Assembly: GCA_002763225.1 (NCBI GenBank)
Contig: PFAI01000015.1
Coordinates: forward strand, 886 to 29,756
Direction: 5' to 3'
DNA length: 28,871 nt
DNA from: Candidatus Diapherotrites archaeon CG10_big_fil_rev_8_21_14_0_10_31_34
Lineage (GTDB): Archaea; Iainarchaeota; Iainarchaeia; Iainarchaeales; 1-14-0-10-31-34
Shown: positions 6,001 through 9,000 of the stretch, piece after piece
Layout: each line of letters begins with the position of its first letter
Position numbering within the stretch: position 1 is the first letter of the stretch
Position numbers: made by a program

Positions 6001-9000
6001 TGGGAAATGCGTTTAAACGCATTTTCTTTTTCTATTTCTTTTTATTTAATTAATTTTTTGTTTTTTCATGTTATTTTTTTATTAATTATTTAGCAGTATT
6101 GGCTATTTGCGCAAAAGTTTTTGGGTTTAGTGAAGCACCGCCGACTAAAACTCCATCAACGTTTTTGATGGAAAAAATTTCTTTACAGTTTTCGGGTTTA
6201 ACGCTTCCCCCATAAAGAATTTTAGTTGAATTGGCTTTTTCTCCAAACAATTCAGTTAACTGGCTTCTGATAAAAGAATGAGCTTCAAAAACATCATTTT
6301 GTTTTGCTGTTTTTCCTGTACCAATCACCCAAACAGGTTCATAAGCAACAAAAAGTTTTGAATTAAAAAAAATGCCTTTAAGAGAATCAGATAATTGTTC
6401 ACTTAAAACAAGATTTGTTTTTTCTTCTTCTTTTTCCTCTAAAGTTTCTCCAACACATAAAATTACATTAAAATTGAACTTTAATGCAGTTTTGATTTTC
6501 TTGTTTATTGATTGATTTGATTCAGAAAATTTATGTCTTTGGTCTGAATGGCCTAACAAAACAAAATCACAGAAATCTTTTAACTGAAGAAAAGAAACTT
6601 TTCCGGTAAACTCTCCTTTTTCTTCAAAAAACGCGTCTTGAGCGCCAATAAAAACTTTTTTTGAAGCAAACTGTTTTGCAGCCGGAATGCATGGAAAAGA
6701 AGGACAGATTAAAATTTCGTTTTTTGTTTTAGAAACAAGTTTATTGAATTCATTAAAGAAATCTTTTGTTTCTTTAACTGTTTTATTCATTTTCCAGTTT
6801 CCTGCAACAAACATTAAACCACAGTATAATAAAACACAAAGAAATAAATAAAATTACTGAAAAAAAGGAAAAAAAGACAATTAAAAGCTTTTTATAGGAA
6901 GAATAATATGAATGGAATATGAAAATGCATCCAGAAAAAAATTGATGGCTTTAGTGAAAAAAGCCCCTGAAATTGAATTAATCAAAAAAGCATTAGATAA
7001 ATCAGAAAACAATTTAAGCGGAAAACAATATTCTAATGCACTAAATACTGCTTTTATTTTAAGCCCATTGCTGATGAGAGGAAATATTATTTCTGCCGCA
7101 TTACTTTATGAAACAAAAATCAGTGAAGAAACAATAAAAAAAGAATTCAATGAAGACACAATGAAATTAATTGTTTCAATGAGAAAAATAAAAAAAATTG
7201 AATCACAGCAAAAAAATTTCAGTTCAGAAACTTTAAGCAAAATAATTCTTGCAACAACAAAAGATGTAAGAACAATAATTCTTGCTTTAGCCACAAAACT
7301 ATCTGAGTTAAGAAACACAAAAGAAGATGAAAAAAAACTTGCAAGAATAGTGAAAGAAGTTTATCTGCCAATAAGCCAGAAATTAGGATTAAATGAAATA
7401 AAATGGGAATTAGAAGACTTGTCCTTTAAAATACTTCAAAGAGAAGAATACACTAAAATAAAAAATGAAATGAAAAAAAAGAAAAAAAAAAGAGATAAAG
7501 ACTTAAAAAAAATTGAAAAAGAAATAAAAAAAGCATTAAAAAAAGAAAAAATTAACGCAAAAGTTGTGGGAAGAGCAAAAAACTTTTATGGAATATACAA
7601 TAAAATGAAGAAAAAAAAATGCAAAGTAAATGAATTGCATGACCTGCTTGCGGTAAGAGTAATCTGCAACACAATAAAAGAATGCTATATTATTCTTGGA
7701 TTAATTCATTCAATGTATGAACCATTGCTTAACGCATTTGATGATTATATTGCAAACCCAAAAGAAAACAATTACAGGTCAATTCACACAGACCTAAAAA
7801 CAGAAACAGGAAAAATATTTGAAGCACAAATCAGGACATGGGAAATGAATACTGAAGCAGAAGAAGGGCTTCCTGCACACTGGTCATACAAGCAAATAAA
7901 AAAAGACAGAGAATTTGACGGAAAACTTTCCTGGGCAAAACAATTAATTGAATGGAATAAAAAACACAAACCAAAAGATGTTTTTAACATAATTCAATTA
8001 GGGTTTGAAGACAAAAAAATTTTCACTTTAACTCCGAAAGCAGATATAATTGAACTGCCCCCAAAAGCAACTCCAATAGATTTTGCTTATGCAATTCATT
8101 CAAATATAGGGAACCAATGTGATAAAGCAAAAGTAAACGAAAAAATAGTTCCATTAAACCATGAACTGGAAAACGGAGACATTGTAGAAATAATTACTTC
8201 AAAAAAACAGTTTCCTAAAAGGCAGTGGCTGACAATAGCAAGAACTGCCAGAGCAAAAGCAAGAATAAGACAGGCACTAGAAATAACAGGAAAAGAAAGG
8301 AAAACAAAAAATCCGGAAAAACAAATAGCAAAAAAACAAATTCATTCAATAAGAATTTCAAAATGCTGTAATCCTCTTCCAGGAGACAAAATTACAGGAA
8401 TGAAAACAACTAAAAGAAAAATAACCATCCACAAGGAATCATGCAGGAATGTTTTAAGGGAAAACCCAAAAAAATTAATTCCAATTAACTGGGAAATGAT
8501 TGGAAAAAAAGAATTAACTGCAGAAATAAAAATTGAGACAACAGAAAAAATTAATTTGCTAAACACAATCCTTGATGCAATTGTATCCTTAAAAGGAAAA
8601 GTGATTTCAACTGAAGCCAAAATGGAAAACAAAAAAGTTTCATCAAAATTTGTTATTCAGGTAAAAAACCCGCAAACAATAACCAAAATAATTGAAAAAA
8701 TAGAGAAAATAGACGGAGTAAAGCAAGTTATAAGGGTTTAAACCAAAAAAAACAAAAAACAAAAGCTTTTATTTAATAAAAAGTTATATTTATTCATTGA
8801 ATAAAAAAAGGGGATTAAATGAAAAGAGTTAAAACTGGAATAACTGGATTAGATGAATTAATTGAAGGGGGCTTTCCTGAAAAAAGATCAATGCTTGTAT
8901 CAGGGGCATGCGGAACAGGAAAAACAATTTTTTCAATGCAATACATTTACAATGGAGCAATGAAATACAATGAACCAGGAATTTATGTTACTTTAGATGA

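Follow-up and report, generated by a model that had tools for sequence, protein, structure and literature searches.

Reciprocal active-site loss in two long RelA/SpoT homologues of Iainarchaeales archaea: a predicted synthetase, often alone, and a predicted hydrolase

The window analysed here is a stretch of 28,871 nucleotides from a Candidatus Diapherotrites archaeon of the order Iainarchaeales. It carries the gene of a long RelA/SpoT homologue (RSH), P0001, between those of a triosephosphate isomerase (TIM) and a KaiC-like ATPase (Table 1). The lysyl-tRNA synthetase (LysRS) gene that follows is of class I and a TFE gene is also present, which identifies the window as archaeal. A second long RSH, P0002, is encoded on another contig, where an alternative GTG start 18 bases upstream of the ATG overlaps the stop codon of the arginyl-tRNA synthetase (ArgRS) gene. 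Both reading frames were found where the earlier note had placed them. The GC3 of both genes matches that of their neighbours, and the source names of close homologues are Candidatus Diapherotrites or Micrarchaeota. Elsewhere in the window, the pilus locus includes two membrane proteins that we take to be TadC-like. The genes of the purine cluster are presumably guaA, purE, purC, purF, purB and purA; PurF was confirmed, and in the PDB it matches E. coli-type structures best. Besides the LAGLIDADG-like protein of the window, another free-standing one was seen at L001 (17393-18142).

Table 1. Features of the synthetase locus and of the paralogous hydrolase gene. Positions refer to the window unless a contig is named; domain limits are residues of P0001.
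Feature	Position	Strand	Remarks
Archaeal pilus locus	1793-6016		type II/IV secretion ATPase, class III signal-peptide pilin
Triosephosphate isomerase	6086..6814	-	divergent upstream neighbour of P0001
Synthetase-only long RSH P0001	6912..8741	+	609 aa; ORF re-found at the same place
P0001 pseudo-HD	23-160
P0001 SYNTH	220-328
P0001 TGS	372-429		followed by a short linker
P0001 CCHC zinc finger	485-511
P0001 ACT	533-608
Single-domain KaiC-like ATPase	8819..9562	+	directly downstream of P0001
Class I (archaeal-type) lysyl-tRNA synthetase	9616..11220	+	next gene, same strand
Purine cluster	11242-19270
Free-standing LAGLIDADG-like protein	19328-20299		confirmed
Xer-like tyrosine recombinase	25675-26538
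Hydrolase-only long RSH P0002	G000:C47:5511-7313, outside the window	-	600 aa from ATG, behind ArgRS

HD_4, RelA_SpoT, TGS and ACT_4 all scored above cut-off in P0001 in a profile search, and the precomputed annotation assigns the same four families to P0002; both proteins have the HD-SYNTH-TGS-ACT architecture of long RSHs. Their description as full-length holds for these four domains but not for the helical (AH) domain, which is largely missing from P0001 (PF19296, 15.4 bits, below cut-off). The two proteins are 31% identical over 465 aa, P0002 being the sole other long homologue in the genome. The best structure matches of P0001 are long Rel/RelA proteins, with small synthetases far lower, and it scores 344 bits against the RelA equivalog model, for which the cut-off is 728.

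Part of the catalytic positions were chosen from what we take to be established in the Rel literature. A Bacillus Rel (P0121) served as the numbering reference across the alignment, and the other positions were anchored in passages of PMC9974481 and PMC4154780. As expected, the control sequences E. coli RelA and E. coli SpoT scored as hS and HS, respectively. P0001 has the synthetase residues R221, K223, K231, D244, R249, Y288, H292, E304, Q306, R308 and H323 and retains the TGS histidine (H396) and the zinc finger (C485/C486/H507/C511). Its HD site is gone: in the pairwise alignment LLYET stands opposite LLHDT and LATKLSE opposite VADRLHN. P0002 keeps the HD residues R78, H87, H111, D112, E115, D116, D178 and N182, is altered at the synthetase positions (Y275, I303, K358, Y360, L377), has D450 at the position of the TGS histidine and has no zinc finger. 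These residues bear out the earlier reading of P0001 as RelA-like with a dead HD domain, and of P0002 as a protein that keeps the hydrolase motifs and has lost the synthetase DxxxxR and ExQ motifs and the zinc finger. A fold model of P0002 (pLDDT 87.6, from a 76-row alignment) superimposed on the catalytic region of S. aureus Rel-pppGpp with an rmsd of 1.5 Å over 325 residues, suggesting that the pseudo-synthetase keeps its fold. For the compact tau-state of SpoT, the comparison with full-length 7qpr gave an rmsd of 14-27 Å, domain placement in the models being unreliable.

We aligned 185 proteins of the order: for the synthetase, 115 of 153 genomes contributed a copy, and for the hydrolase, 70 of 76. 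Seven rows with fragments were left out (two gene halves each from G017 and G053, G079, G171 and a small G177 synthetase). The alignment contained 115 hS proteins (hereafter S), 70 Hs proteins (H), none that was bifunctional and none with neither motif set. Eight catalytic synthetase positions are invariant in all 115 S proteins, as is the guanine-stacking Tyr, and each S protein retains at most five of eight HD residues. A regular-expression search for HDxxED matched no S protein, its sole match being an H protein; the G134 S protein has four metal ligands but is missing E81, D82 and N148. Conversely, at least seven of the eight HD residues are present in all 70 H proteins. All 70 have lost E324 and Q326 of ExQxR, with Lys replacing the catalytic Glu in 66, and the DxxxxR arginine is kept in one; the synthetase Asp is retained in 70/70 and the G-loop Tyr in 64/70. 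The TGS histidine is found in 115/115 S versus 5/70 H proteins and the zinc finger in 112/115 versus 0/70. The TGS-to-ACT distance is 86-92 aa in H (10 of 16 H rows measurable). Among the matches listed, a Rel with both sets of motifs was encoded at 79 of the 80 named bacterial loci. The reciprocal loss of active sites and the unequal fate of the zinc finger, both claimed earlier, thus hold in a larger sample, and these alignments strongly support a reciprocity that extends to the tRNA-sensing histidine of TGS.

Fourteen of the 70 H copies stop after TGS at 478-499 aa and are without ACT (L057, L088, L094, L102, L104, L105, L110, L113-L115, L118, L119, L121, L123). One TGA interrupts the synthetase gene at L008 (G017:C36); close homologues such as P0133 are intact, and the stop may be an assembly error.

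P0001 has matches in 153 of 196 genomes of the order. P0002 has matches in 147 of 196, and again in 147 of the 215 genomes of the phylum; the 19 genomes from other orders are thus all without a match. The pair had been described as an order-wide two-enzyme system. This does not hold: both copies are present in 76 of the 153 RSH-positive genomes; in the other 77 only the synthetase is seen, which shows the pair to be dispensable. Nor are both types spread over more than 20 families, the hydrolase copy being found in 16 of 32 (manual count); six of its 76 genomes are known from fragments and lie outside the count of 70. The S-type locus is present in all 76 hydrolase genomes (H without S, 0/76), and the lone copies aligned, from 58 of the 77 genomes, are all of S type. 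Of the 44 genomes with a completeness of 90% or more, 33 carry both copies and 11 just the synthetase (manual count). Family f14 has one copy in 35 of 38 genomes and two copies in none. G083 (1 contig, 99% complete) and G150 (2 contigs, 97%) each gave one HD_4 match, the dead domain, and no second match even at E up to 1. Genome incompleteness accounts for some missing hydrolases, but not for those of f14, G083 and G150. What stays constant is the synthetase; only about one RSH-positive genome in two has the pair. Of the two states, the lone synthetase is the more surprising. A 2011 survey of bacteria (PMC3153485) states that none was seen whose only RSH was RelA[hS] or a small synthetase.

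Some genomes depart from these types. In family f8, L167 (G030) and L168 (G026) encode synthetase-only RSHs of about 460 aa without zinc finger and ACT; neither genome has an HD_4 match, and G026 is a single contig. L362 (G177:C4 148343-148771) encodes an extra small alarmone synthetase of about 190 aa with intact motifs in a genome whose single long RSH is a synthetase.

The lone synthetases were compared with the paired ones at the AAHW-motif histidine (E. coli RelA 354; M. tuberculosis Rel 344). It is kept in 57/57 paired and 30/58 lone synthetases; the position holds Tyr in 26/26 proteins of f14, the largest family with a lone synthetase, and Asp in 2/2 of f25. Passages of PMC4154780 cite H354Y as lowering RelA synthesis and show that relA changes offset spoT loss, and in a passage of PMC7744563 relH344Y scored like a rel deletion. 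These substitutions, from only two lineages, are a lead to a candidate compensation. Tyr also occurs at this position in two bifunctional proteins from outside the order, which, like the histidine of 30 lone synthetases, counts against it. As a substitute eraser, Ppx/GppA was rejected, being found in 1 of 196 genomes. Nudix genes (184/196 genomes) are eraser candidates but, being near-universal, do not discriminate; matches number up to 18 in f14, and none was found in five of six genomes of genus g1, namely that of the window and four of its five congeners. General HD proteins are present in 4 of 5 lone-synthetase genomes examined. Small stand-alone HD_4 proteins with HDxxED, Mesh1/SAH-like, were seen at L371 (G037), L372 (G182), L373 (G043) and L377 (G045), three of the four in genomes without a long RSH.

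The gene contexts reported earlier were recovered. In 47 of 95 synthetase loci the next gene downstream, in the same orientation, is KaiC-like; any functional link would be hypothetical. The TIM gene occupies the upstream place in 45/95 (37 + 8, two sequence clusters), probably as plain synteny. Of the 70 hydrolase loci, 50 have ArgRS immediately upstream; in 38, H faces a convergent gene for AlaRS or for another aminoacyl-tRNA synthetase, which we take to be LeuRS. This setting fits a translation-linked role and proves nothing. Purine synthesis was considered as a constant target and rejected: the distribution of PurF does not follow that of the pair. The 13 genomes of family f10, 12 of which have the pair, are without a full PurF match, and f32 has PurF and no long RSH.

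Homologue searches gave bifunctional Rel proteins of 630-650 aa as the nearest relatives of both copies (L254, L257, L262 and kin, on archaeal metagenome contigs). They have both active sites intact in one protein. At the four loci scanned, eL15, Pth2, eL43, prefoldin and Kae1 neighbours mark these short-Rel loci as archaeal; the remaining members were assigned to archaea by tree. They share with S a short TGS-to-zinc-finger spacer, 96-105 aa against 85-95 in S (18/18), versus 118-183 in bacteria (29 of 32 rows measured). Outgroups were named bacterial loci from a genome scan, among the matches listed, and Moraxellaceae sequences are absent from all trees. In FastTree (425 rows) S and H are sisters (0.949) inside the short-Rel group (0.968). 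IQ-TREE under LG+G4 (90 chosen rows) recovered S (99/99) and H (100/99), and placed both with the short Rel in a clade (98/95) that excludes 32 rows taken as bacterial; bootstrap had not fully settled, and the sister grouping of S and H is not resolved in this run. Under LG+C20 (60 realigned rows) the archaeal clade has an SH-aLRT of 71; the best tree found under the mixture model has S and H together (p-AU 0.59). In AU tests, forcing H with SpoT gave a p-AU of 0.216, and forcing S with E. coli RelA was 21 lnL worse (p-AU 0.08). After rows were added, the synthetase columns were gapped in 20 of 79 named bacterial rows and 6 others, which may be in the 425-row FastTree and are in none of the IQ-TREE sets.

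Both copies lie apart from E. coli RelA and SpoT in all best trees. The choice between duplication and two acquisitions, left undecided earlier, is narrowed in that both copies group with the bifunctional Rel of archaeal contigs. Descent of both copies from archaeal Rel is in our judgement likely; a duplication in this order's ancestor that gave S and H is favoured, with somewhat less assurance. The proteins probably work like RelA[hS] and SpoT[Hs] without being members of those proteobacterial subgroups. A decayed HD is also seen in short Rel of the archaeal group outside the S clade (P0294, P0381, P0345, P0358, P0263, P0274, P0241, P0176), which we read as parallel moves to synthetase-only in other lineages.

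Complete subfunctionalisation of long RSHs is described for Moraxellaceae in passages of PMC3153485 and PMC9974481. There too synthesis and hydrolysis are fully divided between two long paralogues, RelA[hS] and SpoT[Hs] (A. baumannii SpoT, PDB 7qpr), and the latter hydrolase, ribosome-independent, likewise carries a pseudo-synthetase and has lost the TGS histidine (PMC9974481, in part). The present pair differs in its archaeal host, in a separate origin in all best trees, and in the absence of the hydrolase from half of the RSH-positive genomes. The archaeal hydrolase wholly lacks the helical and zinc-finger region (HEL, ZFD) of A. baumannii SpoT and keeps the synthetase Asp and mostly the G-loop Tyr, both of which SpoT(Ab) replaces, and its Lys for the catalytic Glu is a further difference. 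The archaeal synthetase resembles E. coli RelA[hS] in its dead HD, intact synthetase, TGS His, CCHC zinc finger and ACT, and in xxDD (AFDD) at the EXDD/RXKD position; unlike RelA it is about 130 aa shorter, with AH largely absent, and often has no hydrolase partner. As the earlier note stated, RelA/SpoT of this phylum is already in print: PMC8407392 reports it, in the passage concerned, in 69% of Diapherotrites, as acquired from bacteria, and also in Woesearchaeota, Pacearchaeota and Nanoarchaeota. That passage describes no split, and its figshare Fig. S34 could show two clades. Word searches of PMC8204110 and PMC7414124 gave no match on the split, and our wider literature search, subscription papers apart, found no report of the archaeal division of labour or of the lone state.

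The best explanation, which we regard as probable, is that DPANN archaea already had a bifunctional Rel, from which a specialist sensor-synthetase and a specialist hydrolase arose, probably through a duplication in the order's ancestor, and that the hydrolase was lost several times. P0001 would be a RelA-like starvation sensor, binding uncharged tRNA through its TGS histidine, using its zinc finger and ACT to dock on a stalled archaeal ribosome, and making (p)ppGpp from ATP and GDP/GTP, with an HD domain of only regulatory use. P0002 would hydrolyse (p)ppGpp independently of the ribosome and so reset the signal, with its pseudo-synthetase and TGS serving as scaffold; the change at His354 in some lone synthetases would probably turn synthesis down. 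The motifs are our ground for inferring that the pair runs a stringent response. With most of AH missing and an archaeal ribosome to act on, the synthetase may be activated otherwise than in bacteria. The host has no bacterial RNA polymerase, and the likeliest route of ppGpp action would be direct inhibition of GTPases or nucleotide enzymes. According to PMC8646023, two model archaea, both without these enzymes, gave no detectable (p)ppGpp. A reading that goes further, a bacterial-type, ribosome- and tRNA-triggered (p)ppGpp response on archaeal ribosomes with an independently re-evolved split and a repeatedly dropped hydrolase, has in our judgement a little less than even odds; in it the remaining lone synthetase is detuned at His354 in two families and unchanged in others.

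Alternatively, the split is real and the synthetase answers no ribosome or tRNA, making basal ppGpp or responding to another signal while other phosphatases clear the product. The lone synthetases in half of the genomes, the shortened AH and the widespread Nudix genes speak for this, and the KaiC-like ATPase is a possible source of the signal. However, that adjacency is missing at half of the loci, and keeping the TGS histidine and zinc finger in S while losing them in H is the pattern expected of a protein that reads tRNA on ribosomes; we consider this alternative unlikely. A general Mesh1-like nucleotide phosphatase (NADPH, ppApp), uncoupled from the synthetase, would account for an H copy that is dispensable in half of the genomes and at times without ACT, and stand-alone HD_4 proteins do exist in genomes without a long RSH. 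Yet H never occurs without an S locus, its modelled N-terminal fold remains that of a long RSH, and in the genome of the window and four congeners, which have no Nudix match, H is the only recognisable eraser; this makes the proposal very unlikely. About as improbable is a synthetase whose product is (pp)pApp or pyrophosphorylated tRNA instead, or whose main role is to bind ribosomes without catalysis. In its favour, many of these archaea survive with no recognisable hydrolase, 28/58 lone synthetases have Tyr or Asp in place of His354, and RSH toxins that modify tRNA are reported to exist. Against it, no S protein departs from the guanine-stacking Tyr or from any core catalytic residue, and the structure matches favour long Rel/RelA. 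The idea that the two genes are misbinned DNA of bacteria, or reached these archaea by two recent transfers of RelA and SpoT from Proteobacteria, is largely refuted by the class I LysRS and TFE neighbours, the matching GC3, the conserved synteny across 153/196 genomes, the common spacer (85-105 aa versus 118-183) and every best tree, even if the AU tests do not formally reject either grouping.

Under the preferred reading, these genes add to Moraxellaceae a second natural example in which long RSHs have subfunctionalised completely, and the two can be compared. Whether any archaeon uses (p)ppGpp is an old open question, two model archaea having had none (PMC8646023), and the two genes give a specific, expressible predicted synthetase and hydrolase for testing, including a RelA-type sensor on an archaeal ribosome. 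The lone-synthetase genomes contradict the bacterial rule, as worded in the part of PMC3153485 concerned, that loss of the hydrolase is prohibited, and they offer a natural H354Y-type variant as candidate compensation. If a ribosome-triggered response does operate with lone synthetases, these archaea would have to remove or withstand ppGpp by some means not yet recognised, and its targets would be other than bacterial RNA polymerase.
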